Assembly: GCF_029227855.1 (NCBI RefSeq)
Contig: NZ_CP074356.1
Origin: Escherichia coli
GTDB lineage: Bacteria > Pseudomonadota > Gammaproteobacteria > Enterobacterales > Enterobacteriaceae
DNA: 64,000 nucleotides
Direction: 5' to 3' (one strand)
Under the pieces are notes generated by a model. The model was given only the letters and a program-made list of their open reading frames with translations, had not been told where the DNA came from and searched no databases. The position numbers and the translations under genes are program-made. This document shows positions 133 through 57,915 of the stretch, one piece after another (the first letter of the stretch is position 1; every line of letters starts with the position of its first letter).

Positions 133-249
133 TATATGCCCCTTATGGAATTTTTAGTATTTAGCCGTCCAGATGTTTACACATCCATAATTGGCGGTTA
201 CTGTATATTCCTCAAGCGCAAATTATTCATGCCGAAGTGAAGGACTTTC
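133..249. promoter_or_regulatory. metE-metR divergent promoter/operator region
   Basis: AT-rich 117 bp between two divergent start codons; expected location of MetR/MetJ sites from established knowledge; individual sites not resolved by eye. Confidence 0.4.
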
Positions 250-8887: not shown

Positions 8888-9775
8888 ATGGATGCAAAAC
8901 AAACGCGGCAGGGCGTATTACTCGCTCTTGCCGCTTATTTTATTTGGGGTATAGCGCCAGCGTACTTCAAGTTGATTTACTACGTGCCTGCCGATGAAAT
9001 CCTGACGCATCGCGTGATCTGGTCGTTTTTCTTTATGGTGGTGCTGATGAGCATTTGCCGCCAGTGGTCCTATTTAAAAACGCTGATTCAGACGCCACAG
9101 AAAATTTTTATGCTGGCAGTCTCTGCCGTGCTGATTGGTGGCAACTGGCTACTGTTTATCTGGGCGGTGAACAATCACCATATGCTGGAAGCGAGCCTTG
9201 GTTACTTTATTAACCCGCTGGTGAACATTGTGCTGGGGATGATTTTCCTCGGCGAGCGATTCCGCCGGATGCAATGGCTGGCGGTGATTCTGGCGATATG
9301 TGGCGTGTTAGTCCAGCTGTGGACTTTTGGTTCGCTACCTATTATCGCGCTGGGACTGGCATTTAGTTTTGCCTTCTACGGTCTGGTACGCAAGAAGATT
9401 GCCGTTGAAGCGCAAACCGGCATGTTAATCGAAACCATGTGGCTGCTGCCCGTGGCGGCAATTTACCTGTTTGCTATTGCCGACAGCTCAACCAGCCATA
9501 TGGGGCAAAACCCGATGTCGCTGAATTTACTGCTGATCGCCGCCGGTATTGTCACTACCGTACCGCTGTTGTGTTTTACCGCCGCTGCCACGCGCTTGCG
9601 TCTCTCAACGTTAGGCTTTTTCCAGTACATTGGCCCGACGCTGATGTTCCTGCTGGCTGTGACGTTTTATGGTGAAAAACCGGGTGCCGATAAGATGGTG
9701 ACTTTCGCCTTTATTTGGGTGGCGCTGGCAATTTTTGTGATGGATGCGATTTATACGCAGCGTAGAAAAAGTTAA
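8888..9775 (+). CDS. rarD: EamA-family permease RarD
   Basis: 295-aa, 10-TM-like hydrophobic ORF; synteny. Confidence 0.9.
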   Translation: MDAKQTRQGVLLALAAYFIWGIAPAYFKLIYYVPADEILTHRVIWSFFFMVVLMSICRQWSYLKTLIQTPQKIFMLAVSAVLIGGNWLLFIWAVNNHHMLEASLGYFINPLVNIVLGMIFLGERFRRMQWLAVILAICGVLVQLWTFGSLPIIALGLAFSFAFYGLVRKKIAVEAQTGMLIETMWLLPVAAIYLFAIADSSTSHMGQNPMSLNLLLIAAGIVTTVPLLCFTAAATRLRLSTLGFFQYIGPTLMFLLAVTFYGEKPGADKMVTFAFIWVALAIFVMDAIYTQRRKS

Positions 9776-9821
9776 GAATTAACATGGGTAGGCCGTTTAA
9801 AGAGCCTACCCACTGACTTAT

Positions 9822-10136
9822 TTATCTTTTTTTGAAAAAAATTAAGATAAGAAAAAGAACAATATTTGTTACAGGAAATACCCCCAAAACTCCCCAGTAC
9901 TTACTCCATCCTAGAGACATCGTATATCTACCAAGGATTTGACAAAACCCAAAACTTAACCCTATACCTATACTTCTTAAATTTAATGTCGTAGTCAGGC
10001 TTAAAATAAATAGAACAAGGATGGTAATAGCCCACCACAATAACCATGCCTTAACAAAATCAGATTTTTTGCTGTAAGGTTCTTTACCCAAGAACAACTG
10101 CCAAAAGTTACCATTTCCCATATAGAATCCATTCAC
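9822..10136 (-). CDS. small hypothetical membrane protein (104 aa, GTG start), low-GC
   Basis: ORF with 2-3 predicted TM segments (AWLLWWAITILVLFILSLTT; VLGVFPVTNIVLFLILIFF); AT-rich; may correspond to one of the small yigF/yigG-type genes of this interval, but I cannot verify that. Confidence 0.4.
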   Translation of the reverse strand: MNGFYMGNGNFWQLFLGKEPYSKKSDFVKAWLLWWAITILVLFILSLTTTLNLRSIGIGLSFGFCQILGRYTMSLGWSKYWGVLGVFPVTNIVLFLILIFFKKR

Positions 10137-10333
10137 CCAAGATATTGTTTATAGAATAAAAATACATTTCAATTATATTTAATTAAAATATACCCCATCA
10201 ATAAAAACTTACACACTCTAAATTACTACTGTATAGTTATCAATGCAAAGACTGCTATATTGCATATATATATGCAAACCACATAATTCAGGTAATATAT
10301 ATTCAAAACAATTATATATAAAACAGTGTAAAA

Positions 10334-10720
10334 ATGTTCAAATTATCCATCAGAAATATATTCTACCCATCCAGGCTTGAGCGTTTATCACGCTTTCAGT
10401 TCATAATCTATACATTAACATCATGGTCAATATTAATAACTTTGAATGATATCAACCTGGCTTTGAGTTTTATTCTGGTTATTAATAATACCTATGTAAA
10501 TATCAATATTGGAGCAAAAAGAATAAGAGATACTGGATGTAAGGCAATCTACTTTGTATTGATTTCATTGGGCTTGACACTTTTTTCTATTATCTCTGCA
10601 GCAATTGAAGGGATGAGATGTGAGTCATTAAGCGTCCAACTCAACGTGGCATGGATATTATTCACAACAATTATGTTATCTGCGATTCCCTCGGCTAAAA
10701 TGTCGCTGTCAGCACACTAA
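10334..10720 (+). CDS. small hypothetical inner membrane protein (128 aa), low-GC
   Basis: ORF with about 4 hydrophobic segments, preceded by a very AT-rich 200 bp region; ends 25 bp before the duplicated corA 3' fragment (convergent). Confidence 0.45.
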   Translation: MFKLSIRNIFYPSRLERLSRFQFIIYTLTSWSILITLNDINLALSFILVINNTYVNINIGAKRIRDTGCKAIYFVLISLGLTLFSIISAAIEGMRCESLSVQLNVAWILFTTIMLSAIPSAKMSLSAH

Positions 10721-10744
10721 CTTACTCACAGCGACATCGTATAG

Positions 10745-10883
10745 TTACAGCCAGTTCTTACGCTTAAAGTACAGATACGGTGTCAGGCCCGCGAGGATCA
10801 TAAAGATAATCGCGCCAGGGTAGCCGAAGCCCCACTTCAGTTCTGGCATAAACTCAAAGTTCATGCCATAGCTGGAGGCAATC
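10745..10883 (-). pseudogene. duplicated 3' fragment of corA (last ~46 codons and stop)
   Basis: About 135-140 bp nearly identical (about 8 mismatches) to 12456..12595 at the true corA 3' end; encodes ...[43 protein letters not shown] versus ...[29 protein letters not shown] in intact corA. Confidence 0.8.
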
Positions 10884-11071
10884 CGCGTAGGAAAAAGTTT
10901 CCTAATCGGTAAATTCAACATTTTGTTATTAACAATGAGCAAGACCAATCATTAACGAGGTTCTCTTCAGAGATGTAATGAAAAAATGTGAAGTTTACTT
11001 CTTTTTTAAATATTTTTTTACCCTAGCATTTGTTCTCGAATTGATATTGAGCTTAAATATAACCAAGGCAA

Positions 11072-11926
11072 ATGCAAATGAATAACATATTACTTCCGCC
11101 AATTAATATTCCCTGTACACTTTTCGAAACTATTAGTTTATTCGATGATTTTTCTGCTGATGATATGCAATATGGTGATATGGTAGAACAAGACTTTCTC
11201 TCACTCGGCCTAAGCGATATCTCAGCAAAAGTTGATCCTTACAGACTTATTAAATACCATTTCCCTGGCCCAGGTTCTATTAATGTTGCTTTTAGTGCCT
11301 CAAGTTCCGGAACAAAAATATCACAACGTGAATGCACTGATATTTTATTTGCAGAAATGAAAGAACTAGCAAAAATGCTTTCCTTTTTTGGACAATATAA
11401 AACACTTATCGAAGATCTGATTGAACATTTTAGATATGGAAATGGCAGCAATTTTCATAGCCAACAATTAAATTTATCTTTTCATGAAAAAATAAATAAA
11501 TATGGTTATAATAGTCCAATACGAATAATCAAAGAATGTATCGAAAATGGCATTAATTCAACTCCCTCGACAGGATACCAACCTCTTATCCTGCAAAGCA
11601 TTAAAACCAAATTACTTTCATCAAGACTAAATAAATTTAATGACTTCGAGGACAGTTTTAATGGCTTAGGAATCAGTGTTCATGATATTTCAGCTCAAAA
11701 AATATCTCTTTTAAGTTTTCAAAAATACGCTATAGGATGGAGTGCAACAATTCATTTTGTAGCACAGGACCACTTCGGTCTTGATGTAACTGATATCAAA
11801 AACAAGACTTACAGCAAATATAGATTTTTTCGCATATGGTTCTTTTTACAACGGCATAAAGACTTTGCTTTCAAACCTTTTTTCACCAATTTTAACACTA
11901 TCGAAAGAATCGAAAATTATCTATGA
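11072..11926 (+). CDS. hypothetical protein, 284 aa, no recognisable motif; first gene of a low-GC two-gene cassette
   Basis: Long ORF in a region of about one-third G+C; AAGG Shine-Dalgarno 7 nt upstream; no signal peptide or TM segment evident; stop overlaps the start of the next ORF (ATGA). Confidence 0.6.
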   Translation: MQMNNILLPPINIPCTLFETISLFDDFSADDMQYGDMVEQDFLSLGLSDISAKVDPYRLIKYHFPGPGSINVAFSASSSGTKISQRECTDILFAEMKELAKMLSFFGQYKTLIEDLIEHFRYGNGSNFHSQQLNLSFHEKINKYGYNSPIRIIKECIENGINSTPSTGYQPLILQSIKTKLLSSRLNKFNDFEDSFNGLGISVHDISAQKISLLSFQKYAIGWSATIHFVAQDHFGLDVTDIKNKTYSKYRFFRIWFFLQRHKDFAFKPFFTNFNTIERIENYL

Positions 11927-12414
11927 AAAGCAAACTCCAGAAAATTATATTATGTTTATTTCTTCTATGCTGCATCTATAATTTATGGACATTGCGTCCT
12001 GTACAGATTTTGTATACATACTCTGATGCTGGCAATTCAGTCTTTCTGGTCGTTGATCATCTGCCATGGACTGACAGCGATAAAATAAATTGGTATCTGA
12101 AGCATCAGAATGAAATTAAAAATCAACATCCCCTACCAGAAGGTAGTTGGCATACCTGGTATGTCATTGATATCGGTAATGGCTTCACTGACTATAAAAA
12201 ATATATCGAAGGGCCGTATGAAGATCTCTACTGTTTCCCGACAATTAAGAGCAATGATAATTGCATCGTGAAAAATTACTTAATGGTTATTAATGAATAC
12301 CCTTATCGTAACACTCATATTGGTATTAACGATTTTACTGAGTATCAATTAACACAAGAAAATAAAATAGAGCGAGTTTTCAATCCGCATGACTTTAAAT
12401 ACGACAATTTTTAG
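11923..12414 (+). CDS. hypothetical protein, 163 aa, with N-terminal signal peptide or membrane anchor; second gene of the cassette
   Basis: N-terminus MKSKLQKIILCLFLLCCIYNLWTL (basic then hydrophobic); Tyr/Trp/Asn-rich remainder; translationally coupled to the upstream ORF; ends 41 bp before the corA stop (convergent). Confidence 0.6.
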   Translation: MKSKLQKIILCLFLLCCIYNLWTLRPVQILYTYSDAGNSVFLVVDHLPWTDSDKINWYLKHQNEIKNQHPLPEGSWHTWYVIDIGNGFTDYKKYIEGPYEDLYCFPTIKSNDNCIVKNYLMVINEYPYRNTHIGINDFTEYQLTQENKIERVFNPHDFKYDNF

Positions 12415-12455
12415 AAATAAGCCGGATAAAAAAATAGCTTTATCCGGCACTCATA

Positions 12456-13406: not shown

Positions 13407-13775
13407 GACCGGGACTCCCAATGCTTAAAATATCGGACAGTTCGGTGGGCACACAGAAACAAATTGGGTTTCAGACCATTAAACAGCCTGACTCAGCGCG
13501 ACGGGAAAAATTGAGGTCGCTGACAACCGCTAAGGCTATCAGCAAAAAGGGATAGCCTTAGGAGTTGATCCTGGATGACAGGATAGTGAGCCAGTATCTA
13601 CTGGGTGTGTCCAAGGCGAATGTCCTCTTAGAGTGATCGTGCGCGCATGTTACGCCAGCAAAATTTTGCCGTCAACACGCAACAGAACACCACAGAACAA
13701 TAGTTGAACTTCGCGCTTTTTGGTACTCGTCAAGGTCGCTAACAGGATAAAAAAATCCAACATCCAGGACCTATA

Positions 13776-21132: not shown

Positions 21133-23679
21133 TCACGAAAAATATTGCTGTAATAGCGGCGTATCGTGATCCTGATTGGCAGGCGGCATGTTACCGATAG
21201 ATTTTGTGCGGAACGGAATCACCTGTTCACGACCATCAACCTTCACAATCTGATAGAACTGCGGCAGGTTGAAGTTGATGAAGCTTGAGCCGTAGGTGAA
21301 GCGGTCGTGCGATGACGAGTAGAAGCGACTGACGTCACGCACCAGTTCCTCTTTGCTGCCTTCGCAGTGGTGATACACCTCAACCCGGTTGCTTTCGTCG
21401 AGAATGTAGATATTAAAGCCATTCTCGTCTTGCGTTTCTTCGAAGAAGAACTGGATGATCCCTTCACTAGCAAAGCCGTCCACCACCGCCGGTAATTTGA
21501 CGTGATTGGTTTCAACCTGCACTGACAAGCCGTGCAGTTTGTTATGCGAAATAGCGCCATAAAACTCGATGGCGTTTTCCAGTTTTTGTACCGATACATT
21601 CAGGCGTTCGAAGAACAACCCCCAGGTTTGACCAGAAACGCGCAGCGCCTTGAAACGCCCGGTTTCCTGGCGGGTGCTGGAAAGGCGCAGTTCAATACAC
21701 TCAGAAACCAGTTGCTGCACGCGAGTACGGATTAACCCGCGCAGATGCTGGCTATAACAGAAGACTTCCACGCTATCTGGCGGTGCGGCGTCCTGATGCA
21801 TTTTGCCGAGAATAGTTTTCAGGGCTTCGATCATCGATTGCTCGCCGTTGAAGTGCAGCGTACGCACTTCGTTCCACGAGTTGCGGTACAGCAGGTCAAC
21901 GCTACCTACCAGGCAATTTTGATTCTCGCCAAAGCTGAAGACATCCAGCTTACGGAAATCAAAATGCACCACCTGATTGCGGAACGCCGCTGTCGGGTCA
22001 TATTCCAGGTTAACGATAATCGCCAGATGGCGGATCTCACACGGGCTGTAGAGCGCCTTCGGTGTCGGTGCAGGTAAGCGCAGCGGGAAATGGTGCGACA
22101 CGTCGGCGACCATCTCCTGCAACTTAGGCAAATCGACAATGCCGTTACCTTTAATATACAAACGGGTGCGCGAGGTCAGCAGGCCGTTAAACCATGCCCA
22201 CGCCACCAGTTTATTCAGGTAACGGTTATATTCCAGCGGCTGATGGCTGATGATCGACTCAATATTTGGCGCGCGGTTATACAGATACCAACCTGAACGG
22301 TTAGCACGGCCCGGCGGCACATAAATAAAGGTCAGATTCGGTTCCGAGAGATCGGGTGAAATCTGCGGGTTTACCAGCGTCACTTTACCTGGTAATGCTT
22401 CAAACGCGGCATACAGCTTACGCGTCAGCACGCCGATATCCTGCGGACTGGCGGAGACGCTAAGGTTATTGCGACGCGCAAAGCGGATCAGATTACGGTA
22501 GCTCTGCATCATCGCGTCGAGCAACTCGTTGTGCGCCTCACGCACCTGATCAATCTTCCAGTTAGCGCGGTTATCGAGCATTGCCAGACGAGCTTCGTCC
22601 CAACCCCACTCGCTCACTAACTGGCTCAACACTGCGCGACGCCAGCCTACGCAGGCGCGTTCACGGCTGAGCTTTTCGCACACTTTTAAATAGAAGCAGC
22701 GACGTACTAAATCCAGACGGGTAAAATCTTCAATCGCCGTCAGGTATTCAGTAACACGCTCCAGCATCATGCAGTATGGATCGAGACCAAACGATACAAT
22801 CTCGCCGTCGTGCAAACGCTGTTTGATATCTTTCGCCAGCAGACGTGGGTTCGGGTATTCCCAGGAATAGGCTTCCAGCAGCAGTGTTTTCAGTACCGCT
22901 TTGTATGGGGAATCGATACTCTTGTAGAGCTGCCAAAGGCTGGCACCAAAGTACTCTTCAGCAGAAAGCGAGCTTAAGCCACCGAGATCCAGCCATTCAT
23001 TTGGCGTCAGCACGCCCTGCGCGTAAAGCGTCATCACATAGTCGTCGTAATGCTCTTCTTCGTCGCACGGCACCATATTCCACAGAATACGCTTACCGGC
23101 GAGACGCACGGCGGTACGATAAAATTCGTCAAGCAGCAGTATATGCTGGGTGGAGCCACAATCTTCGCCCCCCAGGCTGCCGCTTTCATTATGACGGAAG
23201 CGGTTTTCATCAATCAGGAAGAAGCTGACTTCCACACCCAGCGAGGCGGCCCAGCTTTCCAGCAGACTACATTTACGTTGTAGTAACTGGCGCTCTTCGC
23301 TATCGAGCCAGGATTGATGACAGACCCAGATATCCAGGTCAGAGGAACAACTTTGCCCTACGGACGAGGTGCTGCCCATGGTGTATACACCAGTAATTGG
23401 AAGCTCACCTTTCGGTGGGTCCTGTACTGACATTCCACGATACAGTTCAAGCTCGTTCAGGTAGTGGCGTTGAGTTTCATCAGGCGTGTAAAGGCAAATG
23501 CCTTTGGGAACGTTACCATCAAGGTAACCCGGCATTAGCGGATGGTGATAGTGCAACAATGTCGGCAGTAGACTGTAGACCTGTTGGAATGCAGGCCCCA
23601 TAGCAGCAAGCGCGCGATCCACACGCAATTGATTTATGGCATCCAGTCTCTGTTTCAGAGTCTCAATATAGAGGTACAA
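21133..23679 (-). CDS. cyaA: class I adenylate cyclase
   Basis: 848-aa [21 protein letters not shown]...; the initiation codon read from the sequence is TTG (complement of 23677..23679). Confidence 0.93.
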
Positions 23680-24065
23680 GACGTATCGCCTGATTTGCTA
23701 CCCGTCATGACTGTGATTCCGCCAACATCAACGGTAACACGCGGCATTCGGGATATTTCGTATGTCAAAGGTAACCGTTACCACTTTTCGCGCCTGGTTT
23801 TTTTAGTTTCACGACGAAAAAATGGTCTAAAACGTGATCAATTTAACACCTTGCTGATTGACCGTAAAGAAAGATGCGCTACATACAAGTGTAGCACCGT
23901 TTATTCTCTGTAAATTCCTTATTACGACGGCGTGAAACGCCTGTCAGGATCCACTGCCAGACCTCATTTTACGGTTTGCGCAGGCGTCTACGTTTCACCA
24001 CAACACTGACATCACTCTGGCAAGGATGTTAGGATGGACCACGGATGATAATGACGGTAACAAGC
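23680..24065. promoter_or_regulatory. cyaA-hemC divergent promoter region
   Basis: 386-bp non-coding interval between divergent starts; individual promoter and CRP sites not resolved by eye. Confidence 0.35.
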
Positions 24066-52615: not shown

Positions 52616-52831
52616 AGGTGTATTGCTCAATCTTCGAACGGGGGGAGGATTGTAGCAGAATCGCATTTGAATGTGACCGAGTGAAAACCGCTAACCGGAT
52701 GGCTGCGGATGTTTAAATCAGAGAGGGAAGGCCGAAACCGGAGTTCATCATGAATCCATTAGACTTAGAAAATATCGGGTCGTAACGTTGTGTTATTACT
52801 TTTTCAGAGTTTACTAAGGAGAGGTTTACTC

Positions 52832-53275
52832 GTGGCGATTAATTTCAGCCCCAAGGTTGGTGAAATACTGGAATGCAACTTTGGTAACTATCCTGTTAGC
52901 CAGAATGGACAGATCAGTACGGCGTATTACGATGGCCGCATTCCACCTGAGATGATAAAAAATAGGTTGGTTGTCGTGCTCAACGGAAAAATTAATGGCA
53001 ACGCATGTATCGTCGTTCCATTATCAACCACTCGCGACCATGACAAGTTAAATCGTGGAATGCATGTTGAAATAGCCAGTAATGTTATCAATGACCTGCA
53101 ATTCTTTGATCAGCAGATACGTTGGGCTAAAGCCGACCTGGTACAACAAGTCAGTCGAAACCGATTAAACAGAGCAAGGACTTATCGGGGTATCTTAATC
53201 AATGTTTGCCACATGAGTTGGTTGCAGACATACAGAGGGCAGTCATCAAGTCAATCAATGCCATATCGCTCATAA
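52832..53275 (+). CDS. yifN: PemK/MazF-fold (toxin-like) protein, intact, no adjacent antitoxin ORF recognised
   Basis: GTG start 8 nt after AAGGAGAG Shine-Dalgarno; segments PKVGEILECNF, RLVVVLNG and NACIVVPLST resemble the PemK/MazF conserved core (GEIWLVDLDP / RPVLIV / LPVVVPVTS) as I recall it; symbol by synteny between rep and ppiC. Confidence 0.55.
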   Translation: MAINFSPKVGEILECNFGNYPVSQNGQISTAYYDGRIPPEMIKNRLVVVLNGKINGNACIVVPLSTTRDHDKLNRGMHVEIASNVINDLQFFDQQIRWAKADLVQQVSRNRLNRARTYRGILINVCHMSWLQTYRGQSSSQSMPYRS

Positions 53276-53800: not shown

Positions 53801-55276
53801 TTAACCCGCAACAGCAATACGTTTCATATCTGTCATATAGCCGCGCAGTTTCTTACCTACCTGCTCAATCGCATGGCTGCGAATCGCTTCGTTCACATCA
53901 CGCAGTTGCGCGTTATCTACCGCGCCTTCCGGAATAGCTTTACCCAAGTCGCCCGGTTGCAGCTCTGCCATAAACGGTTTCAGCAACGGCACACAAGCGT
54001 AAGAGAACAGATAGTTACCGTACTCAGCGGTATCAGAGATAACCACGTTCATTTCGTACAGACGCTTACGGGCGATGGTGTTGGCAATCAGCGGCAGCTC
54101 GTGCAGTGATTCATAATATGCAGACTCTTCAATGATGCCGGAATCGACCATGGTTTCGAACGCCAGTTCAACGCCCGCTTTCACCATCGCGATCATCAGT
54201 ACGCCTTTATCGAAGTACTCCTGCTCGCCGATTTTGCCTTCATACTGCGGCGCGGTTTCAAACGCGGTTTTGCCGGTCTCTTCACGCCAGGTCAGCAGTT
54301 TCTTATCATCGTTGGCCCAGTCCGCCATCATACCGGAAGAGAATTCGCCGGAGATGATGTCGTCCATATGTTTCTGGAACAGCGGTGCCATGATCTCTTT
54401 CAGCTGTTCAGAAAGCGCATAAGCACGCAGTTTCGCCGGGTTAGAGAGACGGTCCATCATCAGGGTGATGCCGCCCTGCTTCAGCGCTTCGGTGATGGTT
54501 TCCCAACCGAACTGAATTAGTTTTTCTGCGTATGCCGGATCGGTGCCCTCTTCCACCAGCTTGTCGAAGCACAGCAGCGAGCCAGCCTGCAACATACCGC
54601 ACAGGATGGTTTGCTCACCCATCAGGTCAGATTTCACTTCCGCAACGAAGGACGATTCCAGCACGCCCGCACGGTGACCACCGGTTGCTGCCGCCCATGC
54701 TTTAGCGATCGCCATACCTTCGCCTTTCGGATCGTTTTCCGGGTGAACGGCAATCAGCGTCGGTACGCCGAATCCACGTTTGTACTCTTCACGCACTTCG
54801 GTGCCAGGGCATTTCGGCGCAACCATGACTACGGTGATATCTTTACGGATCTGCTCGCCCACTTCGACGATGTTGAAACCGTGCGAGTAACCCAGCGCCG
54901 CGCCGTCTTTCATCAGTGGCTGTACGGTGCGCACTACATCAGAGTGCTGCTTGTCCGGCGTCAGGTTAACCACCAGATCCGCCTGCGGGATCAGTTCTTC
55001 GTAAGTACCAACTTTAAAACCGTTTTCGGTCGCTTTACGCCAGGACGCGCGCTTCTCGGCAATCGCTTCTTTACGCAGAGCGTAGGAGATATCGAGACCA
55101 GAATCACGCATGTTCAGGCCCTGGTTCAGCCCCTGTGCGCCACAGCCGACGATAACCACTTTTTTATCCTGAAGGTAGCTCGCGCCGTCGGCGAATTCGT
55201 CGCGCCCCATAAAGCGACATTTGCCCAGCTGTGCCAGCTGCTGGCGCAGGTTCAGTGTATTGAAGTAGTTAGCCAT
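53801..55276 (-). CDS. ilvC: ketol-acid reductoisomerase
   Basis: ORF track gives 541 aa; true start [23 protein letters not shown] gives 491 aa. Confidence 0.95.
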
Positions 55277-55425
55277 GGTGATTCCTCGTGATGTTGTGCT
55301 TCTTATTGTTCGGTTCGCGTTTGCGAGATTGAATTCACTATATGACAGGAAATTTATTGCGGAAATTGATATATTCACAACGTCACATTGCAATTTTTGC
55401 AACGTCAACATCGAGGGCTGCGCCA
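55277..55425. promoter_or_regulatory. ilvC-ilvY divergent promoter/operator region
   Basis: 149-bp interval between divergent ilvC and ilvY starts; IlvY operators expected from established knowledge, not individually resolved. Confidence 0.45.
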
Positions 55426-56319
55426 TTGGATTTACGCGATCTGAAAACCTTCCTGCATCTGGCGGAAAGCCGCCATTTTGGCCGCAGCGCGCGGGCGATG
55501 CACGTTAGCCCATCCACGCTCTCACGGCAGATTCAGCGCCTGGAAGAAGATCTTGGTCAGCCGCTATTTGTGCGCGATAACCGCACGGTAACGCTGACGG
55601 AAGCGGGCGAAGAGCTGCGCGTTTTCGCCCAGCAAACGCTGTTGCAGTATCAGCAATTGCGCCACACCATCGATCAGCAAGGGCCGTCGCTCTCTGGCGA
55701 ATTACATATCTTCTGCTCGGTGACCGCTGCCTACAGCCATCTGCCGCCGATTCTGGATCGCTTCCGCGCGGAACACCCGTCGGTGGAGATCAAACTCACC
55801 ACTGGTGATGCGGCAGATGCAATGGAAAAAGTGGTCACGGGAGAAGCGGATCTGGCGATTGCCGGGAAACCGGAGACGCTACCCGGCGCTGTGGCGTTTT
55901 CGATGCTGGAGAATCTGGCAGTAGTGCTGATTGCGCCCGCGCTGCCCTGCCCGGTGCGTAACCAGGTTTCGGCAGAGAAGCCGGACTGGTCTACAGTGCC
56001 GTTTATCATGGCCGATCAGGGACCGGTGCGTCGCCGCATTGAACTGTGGTTTCGACGCAATAAAATCAGCAACCCGATGATTTACGCCACGGTTGGCGGG
56101 CATGAAGCGATGGTATCGATGGTGGCGCTCGGCTGTGGTGTGGCGCTGTTGCCGGAAGTAGTGCTGGAAAACAGCCCCGAACCGGTGCGTAACCGCGTGA
56201 TGATTTTAGAGCGCAGCGATGAAAAAACGCCGTTTGAACTGGGCGTGTGTGCACAAAAAAAGCGGCTGCATGAGCCGCTGATTGAGGCGTTCTGGAGGAT
56301 TTTGCCGAACCACAAATGA
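55426..56319 (+). CDS. ilvY: LysR-family regulator IlvY
   Basis: In-frame TTG at 55426 gives a 297-aa protein beginning (M)[39 protein letters not shown] (HTH); there is no ATG in frame upstream of the HTH. Confidence 0.88.
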
Positions 56320-56324
56320 CGTTG

Positions 56325-56365
56325 TCGCGCGGGTAGGCCTGATAAGCGAAGCGCTATCAGGCATT
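56325..56365. repeat. REP-like palindromic unit
   Basis: gtaggcctgataagcgaagcgctatcaggc between ilvY and ilvA. Confidence 0.4.
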
Positions 56366-56370
56366 TTTCC

Positions 56371-57915
56371 CTAACCCGCCAAAAAGAACCTGAACGCCGG
56401 GTTATTGGTTTCGTCGTGGCAATCGTAGCCCAGCTCATTCAGCCGGGTTTCGAAATCCGGTTCATGGTCGCCAAGTTCGAACGCCGCCAGTACGCGCCCG
56501 TAGTCGGTGCCATGGCTGCGATAGTGGAACAAAGAAATGTTCCAGTGCGTACCCAGCGTGTTGAGGAAGCGCAGCAGCGCGCCCGGTGATTCCGGGAATT
56601 CGAAGCTGTAGAGGCGTTCCTGCAACGGATGTGACGGACGCCCGCCGACCATATAGCGCACATGCAACTTCGCCATTTCGTCGTCGGAGAGATCCACCAC
56701 GCTGTAGCCGCCGTCGTTGAGCATCTGCAAAATTTCTTTGCGCTCTTCGAGGCCGCGGCTCAGGCGCACGCCGACAAAGATGCAGGCGTTTTTGGCATCG
56801 GCAAAACGGTAGTTGAACTCGGTGACCGATCGCCCGCCAAGCAGTTGGCAGAATTTGAGGAAGCTGCCTTTTTCTTCCGGAATGGTCACCGCCAACAACG
56901 CTTCACGCTGTTCGCCCAGTTCGCAGCGTTCCGAGACGTAGCGCAGGCCGTGGAAGTTCACGTTGGCACCGGAAAGAATATGCGCCAGCCGTTCGCCGCG
57001 AATGTTGTGCTGGGCGATATATTTTTTCATTCCCGCCAGCGCCAGCGCGCCAGAGGGTTCCGCCACCGCGCGCACATCTTCGAATAAATCCTTCATCGCC
57101 GCACAGATCGCATCACTATCGACGGTGATGATGTCGTCGAGATACTCCTGGCATAAACGGAAGGTTTCGTCACCGATGCGTTTTACCGCTACGCCTTCAG
57201 CAAATAGCCCTACGCGCGGCAGATCAACCGGATGACCCGCATCCAGCGCTGCTTTCAGGCAGGCGGAGTCTTCCGCTTCTACGGCGATCACTTTGATTTG
57301 TGGCATCAGTTGTTTGATCAGCACCGCAACGCCCGCCGCCAGACCGCCGCCGCCGACTGGCACAAATACGCGGTCGAGATGGGCGTCCTGCTGGAGCAGT
57401 TCCAGCGCCAGCGTGCCTTGCCCGGCAATCACCATCGGATGGTCGAACGGCGGCACCCAGGTGAACCCCTGCTGCTGTGACAGTTCGATCGCTTTAGCTT
57501 TCGCTTCGTCAAAGTTCGCGCCATGAAGCAGCACTTCGCCGCCGAATCCACGTACCGCATCGACTTTGATGTCGGCGGTGGCGGTTGGCATAACGATCAG
57601 GGCCTTCACGCCTAACCGCGCAGAAGAAAACGCGACGCCCTGCGCGTGGTTACCCGCAGAAGCAGTGATCACGCCGTGCGCTTTTTGTTCTTCCGTCAGG
57701 CCCGCCATCATGGCGTATGCGCCGCGCAGCTTAAAGCTGTGCACTGGCTGGCGATCTTCGCGCTTCACCAGAATGACGTTATCAAGACGCGACGACAGTT
57801 TTTCCATTTTTTGTAGCGGCGTAACCTGCGCCGCCTCGTAAACCGGCGCGCGCAGCACTGCTCTTAAATATTCGGCACCTTCCGGAGCACCGGACAGGGG
57901 TTGCGAGTCAGCCAT
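56371..57915 (-). CDS. ilvA: threonine dehydratase (biosynthetic)
   Basis: 514-aa ORF with PLP-binding region (HSFKLRGA) and C-terminal regulatory ACT-like domains. Confidence 0.95.
   Translation of the reverse strand: MADSQPLSGAPEGAEYLRAVLRAPVYEAAQVTPLQKMEKLSSRLDNVILVKREDRQPVHSFKLRGAYAMMAGLTEEQKAHGVITASAGNHAQGVAFSSARLGVKALIVMPTATADIKVDAVRGFGGEVLLHGANFDEAKAKAIELSQQQGFTWVPPFDHPMVIAGQGTLALELLQQDAHLDRVFVPVGGGGLAAGVAVLIKQLMPQIKVIAVEAEDSACLKAALDAGHPVDLPRVGLFAEGVAVKRIGDETFRLCQEYLDDIITVDSDAICAAMKDLFEDVRAVAEPSGALALAGMKKYIAQHNIRGERLAHILSGANVNFHGLRYVSERCELGEQREALLAVTIPEEKGSFLKFCQLLGGRSVTEFNYRFADAKNACIFVGVRLSRGLEERKEILQMLNDGGYSVVDLSDDEMAKLHVRYMVGGRPSHPLQERLYSFEFPESPGALLRFLNTLGTHWNISLFHYRSHGTDYGRVLAAFELGDHEPDFETRLNELGYDCHDETNNPAFRFFLAG

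Follow-up and report, generated by a model that had tools for sequence, protein, structure and literature searches.

TTG start codons of cyaA and ilvY in an Escherichia coli genome: one kept across gammaproteobacteria, the other variable among strains

In Escherichia coli K-12, the adenylate cyclase gene cyaA (b3806) is translated from a UUG codon (Roy 1983; Aiba 1984; Reddy, Peterkofsky & McKenney 1985). When this codon was mutated to GUG and AUG, the relative synthesis from UUG, GUG, and AUG was 1:2:6 (Reddy et al. 1985, as cited in PMC5499595). Fusions of the three start codons to lacZ gave 1:2:3, and the UUG is conserved in many Enterobacterales and other gammaproteobacteria (PMC5499595). 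The gene, cya, is also a member of the polyamine modulon, polyamines enhancing the binding of fMet-tRNA at UUG and GUG starts (PMC7177335). The second gene considered here is ilvY (b3773), described in K-12 together with the divergent ilvY-ilvC control region (Wek & Hatfield 1986, 1988). Here we report on the start codons of both genes in a stretch of 64,000 nucleotides from another E. coli genome (assembly GCF_029227855.1, contig NZ_CP074356.1), referred to as the window. In this strain, cyaA and ilvY are very probably both translated from UUG at their annotated positions. Both TTG starts are already known from annotation and from the literature; what is new is limited to an in-frame ATG upstream of ilvY, judged unused, and to the fact that the ilvY start is TTG or GTG depending on the E. 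coli strain.

Compared with K-12, the window has the same cyaA TTG, the same upstream TAG, the same weak AGG, and the same 848-amino-acid product. The 281 nucleotides from −223 to +58 of the start are 100% identical, the start itself shows no difference, and the coding sequence of the window differs by scattered single-nucleotide polymorphisms only. The ilvY locus also shares with K-12 the start position, the Shine-Dalgarno (SD) sequence, the operators O1 and O2, and the 297-amino-acid product, and the 144 nucleotides of intergenic sequence upstream of the spacer between SD and start are 100% identical. The ilvY start codon, however, is GTG in K-12 and TTG in the window, a difference of which the preliminary description of this stretch was unaware. 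Three more substitutions fall in the 7-nucleotide spacer (CTGTCCCTGTG in K-12 vs. CTGCGCCATTG in the window), so that four substitutions are packed into the spacer and start codon (context GAGGGCTGTCCCTGTGGAT in K-12, GAGGGCTGCGCCATTGGAT in the window). In its coding sequence, the ilvY of the window is 95.2% identical to that of K-12.

The window is chromosomal, and the regions of the two genes have matches in thousands of complete E. coli genomes, several of which are 100% identical there. It is colinear with K-12 MG1655 throughout, from metE to ilvL, with an identity of 97.7–99.2%. Strain 503025 is 100% identical to the window over the start regions of cyaA and ilvY, and the annotation of that strain by the Prokaryotic Genome Annotation Pipeline (PGAP) has the same two TTG starts; its cyaA start maps to window position 23679 and its ilvY to 55426–56319. 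Among the 59 annotated coding sequences of the region, 51 start with ATG, five with GTG, and three with TTG (ilvY, cyaA, and ysgD). The genomic rate of TTG starts is about 3–4.35%. At that rate, the probability of finding at least three TTG starts in 59 coding sequences is 0.26–0.48; TTG starts are not enriched in the region, and their count is that of the genomic base rate. The third of these genes, ysgD, lies upstream of corA and encodes a small protein in 19 codons, with its annotated TTG at window 13612–13614 on the minus strand.

The cyaA coding sequence, for a class I adenylate cyclase of 848 amino acids plus the stop codon, occupies 21133..23679 on the minus strand, where the list of open reading frames (ORFs), the translation, Pfam, PGAP, and MG1655 b3806 all give the same frame. 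Its initiation codon is the TTG at 23677..23679 (minus strand), which was read directly and is the annotated start in both PGAP and MG1655. On these points, the preliminary description was borne out, as it was in calling the use of UUG by cyaA established, given the mutagenesis of Reddy et al. (1985) in the form cited in PMC5499595. Around the start, the minus strand reads ...GGG TAG CAA ATC AGG CGA TAC GTC TTG TAC CTC TAT ATT GAG... The in-frame TAG, at 23698..23700 (minus strand, read directly), precedes the TTG by six codons, and there are zero ATG, GTG, or TTG codons between the two; therefore, the cyaA frame, whose TTG is homologous to the K-12 start and which is closed just upstream, cannot begin further upstream. 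The ribosome-binding element is a weak AGG at 23689..23691 (minus strand), within a conserved AUCAGGCGA motif that is retained in four orthologs (L095, L096, L097, and L099), and the best anti-SD duplex in the 25 nucleotides upstream is only −3.8 kcal/mol. The protein shows the domain architecture of a class I adenylate cyclase, with Adenyl_cycl_N (PF12633) at residues 5–200 (E = 1.2e-82) and Adenylate_cycl (PF01295) at residues 228–825 (E = 3.2e-258). Separately, an out-of-frame mini-ORF, ATG-CCA-TAA, was observed 37 nucleotides inside cyaA (window 23635–23643, minus strand); it corresponds to an in-vitro initiation peak that the INRI-seq supplement of PMC9825163 gives for cyaA at K-12 position 3991189.

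Among 5425 complete E. coli genomes, 5421 carry exactly the same 50-mer with the cyaA TTG at its centre, and the cyaA 5′ region was at least 99% identical in 5410. Outside the species, the homologous codon was TTG in all seven sampled cyaA orthologs, which came from Enterobacterales, Vibrionaceae/Photobacterium, and Aeromonas, had an amino-acid identity of 47–98%, and included Photobacterium sanctipauli and a metagenome-assembled genome of Aeromonas veronii. In one ortholog, a 1-nucleotide indel shifts the TAG out of frame and the gene caller picked an upstream ATG; the TTG is still there. The N-terminal motif xYIETLKxR is conserved out to Photobacterium, and a distant CyaA homolog from Thiohalobacter (39% identity) starts with ATG and differs in its N-terminus. 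The cyaA UUG is thus essentially invariant in E. coli and kept in several orders of gammaproteobacteria. Conservation of this depth agrees with the regulatory role documented for the codon and with a role under selection.

The ilvY gene lies on the plus strand at 55426..56319 (PGAP coordinates, Pfam) and encodes the LysR-type regulator IlvY, of 297 amino acids plus the stop codon. The preliminary description had placed both genes under the span 21133–23679, which is right for cyaA and does not hold ilvY. The initiation codon is TTG at 55426..55428 (plus strand; direct reading and PGAP), the position at which K-12 has GTG, and the SD sequence, GAGGG, is 8 nucleotides ahead of it (55413..55417, plus strand), with an anti-SD duplex of −6.4 kcal/mol. 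Pfam places the helix-turn-helix domain HTH_1 (PF00126) at residues 3–62, covering profile positions 1–60 end to end (E = 3.7e-23), followed by LysR_substrate (PF03466, E = 4.8e-37); the start is two residues before HTH_1, with the SD sequence ahead.

As expected of an IlvY locus, these two domains are combined with a divergent ilvC 149 bp away on the opposite strand and with both operators in between. The ATG of ilvC, at 55274..55276 (minus strand), bounds this 149-bp control region. Operator O1, ACATTGCAATTTTTGCAACGT, at 55385..55405 (plus strand), matches the operator in PMC5002191, taken from Wek & Hatfield (1988). Operator O2, TTATTGCGGAAATTGATATAT, at 55355..55375 (plus strand), is the reverse complement of O2 in the same source and overlaps ilvY and ilvC promoter elements. 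A simple sigma-70 consensus scan of 55200–55500 found no promoter, so the ilvY transcription start was taken from the literature: the centre of O1 reportedly falls on +17 relative to the ilvY transcript (Wek & Hatfield 1988, as cited in PMC5002191), which would put the transcription start near 55379.

The position of the ilvY start was examined in loci from 80 Enterobacteriaceae species representatives, in which the codon aligned to residue 1 was read; an alignment of orthologs had been proposed in the preliminary description as a check. This codon was a start codon in every species: GTG in 64, ATG in 15, and TTG in one, E. albertii. Conservation jumps at +2 and shows three-base periodicity downstream. 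Positions +2 and +3 are 100% conserved, and the first and second positions of codons 2–10 show 93–100% conservation, compared with only 37–75% at −1 to −8. Further upstream, a GGAG-type core at −12 to −9 is 72–98% conserved, with a mean anti-SD duplex of −6.7 kcal/mol. In 53 of the 80 species, an in-frame stop lies at most six codons upstream of the start, and a longer IlvY is therefore excluded in those species. The MG1655 annotation also starts ilvY at the position homologous to 55426. The assignment of the ilvY start to 55426 thus rests on comparative evidence and annotation, by which it is strongly supported, and the claim of the preliminary description that the 297-amino-acid frame starts at this TTG agrees with the direct reading, the PGAP start, and the aligned start codons.

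Within E. coli, the ilvY start codon was followed by running allele-specific 50-mer probes against the 5425 complete genomes carrying the locus. Megablast requires an exact 28-mer, and therefore a centred probe reports its own allele only. The TTG family of the window comprised 3358 genomes, 604 of them identical to it and the others differing by 1–2 nucleotides in the SD region, with the TTG kept in four of four that were sampled. The K-12-type GTG allele, CTGTCCCTGTG, which includes O157:H7, was found in 1774 genomes, and a second, intermediate GTG allele, CTGCGCCTGTG, in 149. Probes for three further alleles (the L010-type allele, GCGCCAGTG, and GCGCCTTTG) had no match among the E. coli genomes. 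TTG is thereby the majority allele of the species, at 62% or more, and GTG accounts for at least 35% (at least 1923 genomes). The alleles differ by an adjacent dinucleotide change at −1/+1 and by substitutions in the spacer. With the predicted 5′ leader folded, the ilvY ribosome-binding site takes similar energies to open, 6.75 kcal/mol in the TTG allele and 7.96 kcal/mol in the K-12 GTG allele.

These alleles belong to the most diverged gene of the neighbourhood, since the 95.2% identity of ilvY to K-12 compares with 97.6–98.2% for the flanking genes ilvC and ilvA, and the intergenic region is 100% identical. Over window 55200–56400, 1651 complete E. coli genomes are just 90–95% identical. 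In E. albertii NBRC 107761 (L012, 1471–1503), we found the exact E. coli TTG context, TTGAGGGCTGCGCCATTG (GCGCCATTG). The ilvY coding sequence of that strain is 89.9% identical to that of the window, and with so low an identity a recent transfer of ilvY from E. albertii was rejected. The common TTG context of the two species suggests either an old polymorphism or a parallel change.

The preliminary description had stated that no ATG lies upstream of the helix-turn-helix of IlvY, and this proved incorrect: an in-frame ATG is present at 55342..55344 (plus strand), 28 codons upstream of the TTG, and the mechanical ORF runs from 55342 to 56319 (325 amino acids). Because of this ATG, that observation is only partly confirmed, and the interpretation of the start codons is nevertheless supported; a conclusion can hold even where a shortcut to it, such as "no upstream ATG", does not. 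Translation from ATG 55342 would give IlvY a 28-residue N-terminal extension. ATG is the preferred start codon, and the same open extension occurs in K-12 and some relatives, 15 of the 80 species being open for 31 codons upstream. The codon lies, however, in the promoter/O2 region, about 37 nucleotides before the point at which transcription would start, given the cited position of O1, and has no usable SD sequence (best duplex, −3.0 kcal/mol). The extension overlaps operator DNA and has no Pfam domain match, neither PGAP nor EcoGene-derived annotations start ilvY there, and the frame is closed close to the real start in the 53 species mentioned above. Taken together, we consider the 325-amino-acid product very improbable. 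Starts further downstream, giving a shorter protein from one or both genes, would have in-frame candidates at codon 25 of ilvY (ATG) and at codons 18 (TTG), 20 (GTG), and 27 (ATG) of cyaA, and their chance is next to nil. The first downstream ATG of ilvY, at 55498..55500 (plus strand), is inside HTH_1 and is not a plausible start, as a protein begun there would lack a third of the domain (22 of 60 profile positions); a shorter IlvY of this kind had been named in the preliminary description as what would overturn its assignment. The candidates in cyaA would remove the beginning of Adenyl_cycl_N, and the match of this domain from residue 5 argues against all three of them. The high conservation of ilvY codons 2–10 and of the CyaA motif xYIETLKxR also stands against shorter proteins, as does the altered protein yield upon mutagenesis of the cyaA UUG, as cited in PMC5499595.

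Several points nonetheless weigh against translation of both genes from their TTG codons as set out here, or against the meaning attached to them. The frame from ATG 55342 to the ilvY TTG has no stop over its 28 codons, and the window sequence alone does not exclude the longer frame. The transcription start near 55379 relies on a secondary citation (PMC5002191). Searches turned up no experiment that directly maps where IlvY begins or where ribosomes initiate on ilvY, and the gene has no entry in the INRI-seq and TRAINSPOTTER supplements. About 144 genomes matched none of the allele-specific probes. Finally, the ATG found at the ilvY start in 15 of the 80 species runs counter to a strong need for a weak start codon.

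Regarding what the two start codons do, the UUG of cyaA, together with its weak ribosome-binding site, is an old, conserved device limiting the amount of adenylate cyclase, several-fold according to the literature, and the same combination of UUG and weak SD makes initiation sensitive to polyamines, again as reported. For ilvY, the position is what stays fixed, 8 nucleotides after the GAGGG and immediately ahead of the LysR-type helix-turn-helix, and the identity of the codon varies. GTG is the common state in the Enterobacteriaceae and in K-12, with TTG arriving along with the changes in the 7-nucleotide spacer. The autoregulated promoter and a non-AUG start of either kind are probably the main reasons for a low output of IlvY, and the fixed start site and the moderate SD sequence may contribute. 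Since E. coli strains carry either TTG or GTG in ilvY and 15 species have ATG there, TTG in particular is probably neither a tuned nor a conserved design feature. The idea of the preliminary description that weak start codons keep expression low thus stands for cyaA, where the literature provides a demonstration, and fails as a TTG design in ilvY, whose codon varies freely.

With the start positions taken as right, the presence of TTG over GTG in ilvY could be a matter of neutral drift or of hitch-hiking in a diverged allele, and not an adaptation to low expression, a reading whose chance we put a little short of even. The changes of the codon across species and within E. coli (3358 TTG and at least 1923 GTG genomes) are consistent with it, as are the position of ilvY as the most diverged gene between its flanking genes and the small predicted gap in opening energy between the alleles. 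Start-codon switches between close prokaryotic relatives are, moreover, a general phenomenon and generally under weak selection (Belinky, Rogozin & Koonin 2017, PMC5622118). On the other hand, 65 of the 80 species keep a non-AUG ilvY start, which hints at a degree of constraint disfavouring strong starts, and the adjacent −1/+1 double change of the TTG allele, along with its spacer changes, could be compensatory. The idea that the spacer changes compensate strongly, by way of structure, for the weaker codon was considered and set aside, the predicted difference of about 1.2 kcal/mol not being decisive. An improbable reading would see the ilvY start codon as an old polymorphism, perhaps maintained by selection, whose allelic changes might set a lineage-specific dose of IlvY and inducibility of ilvC.

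Elsewhere, the window departs from its relatives at several places. Next to corA, a strain-variable island of 2.7 kb (window 9768–12455) stands in place of the K-12 yigF/yigG. It encodes a DUF3289 protein (11072–11926, plus strand) and a DUF943 membrane protein (11923–12414, plus strand), together with two ORFs without a family match, and it contains a 137-bp duplicate of the corA 3′ end (10745–10881), which suggests that the island was inserted by recombination at corA. In strain 503025, a three-gene insert lies between cyaY and lptM (L101, 11470–15180), with two hypothetical proteins and a DUF3304 protein; the window is without it and must therefore derive from another strain. At aslA (window ~28995), about 1.58 kb corresponding to K-12 3984290–3985868 are gone, and PGAP calls the remnant an arylsulfatase pseudogene in strain 503025. 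An intact ORF of 161 amino acids with a GTG start (window 52790–53275, plus strand) matches a PemK/MazF-like toxin (Pfam E = 1.1e-9), and its K-12 counterpart is only the pseudogene yifN. Likewise, ilvG (window ~61042–62688, minus strand) is intact here, being annotated with 1647 nucleotides in strain 503025, and is a frameshifted pseudogene in K-12. Between metR and metE, a short intergenic segment (window 134–159) has 26 nucleotides, vs. 145 in K-12 (4012907–4013051), and is unaligned.

Beyond annotation quality, the finding matters little, yet the contrast between cyaA and ilvY indicates that a non-AUG start is not automatically a tuned regulatory feature. Among the known systems, the polyamine modulon described by the Igarashi group, with its inefficient UUG/GUG starts (cya, cra, spoT, frr, gshA, and uvrY), is represented in the window by a cyaA with the exact polyamine-stimulated UUG context, and ilvY is not among the reported members (PMC7177335). 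The ilvY gene is instead like the switches collected by Belinky et al. (PMC5622118), as GTG, TTG, and ATG swap at a fixed position in close relatives, with linked changes beside the start codon. Unlike that set, however, ilvY is a single-gene example, polymorphic within one species and with its TTG context in common with E. albertii.

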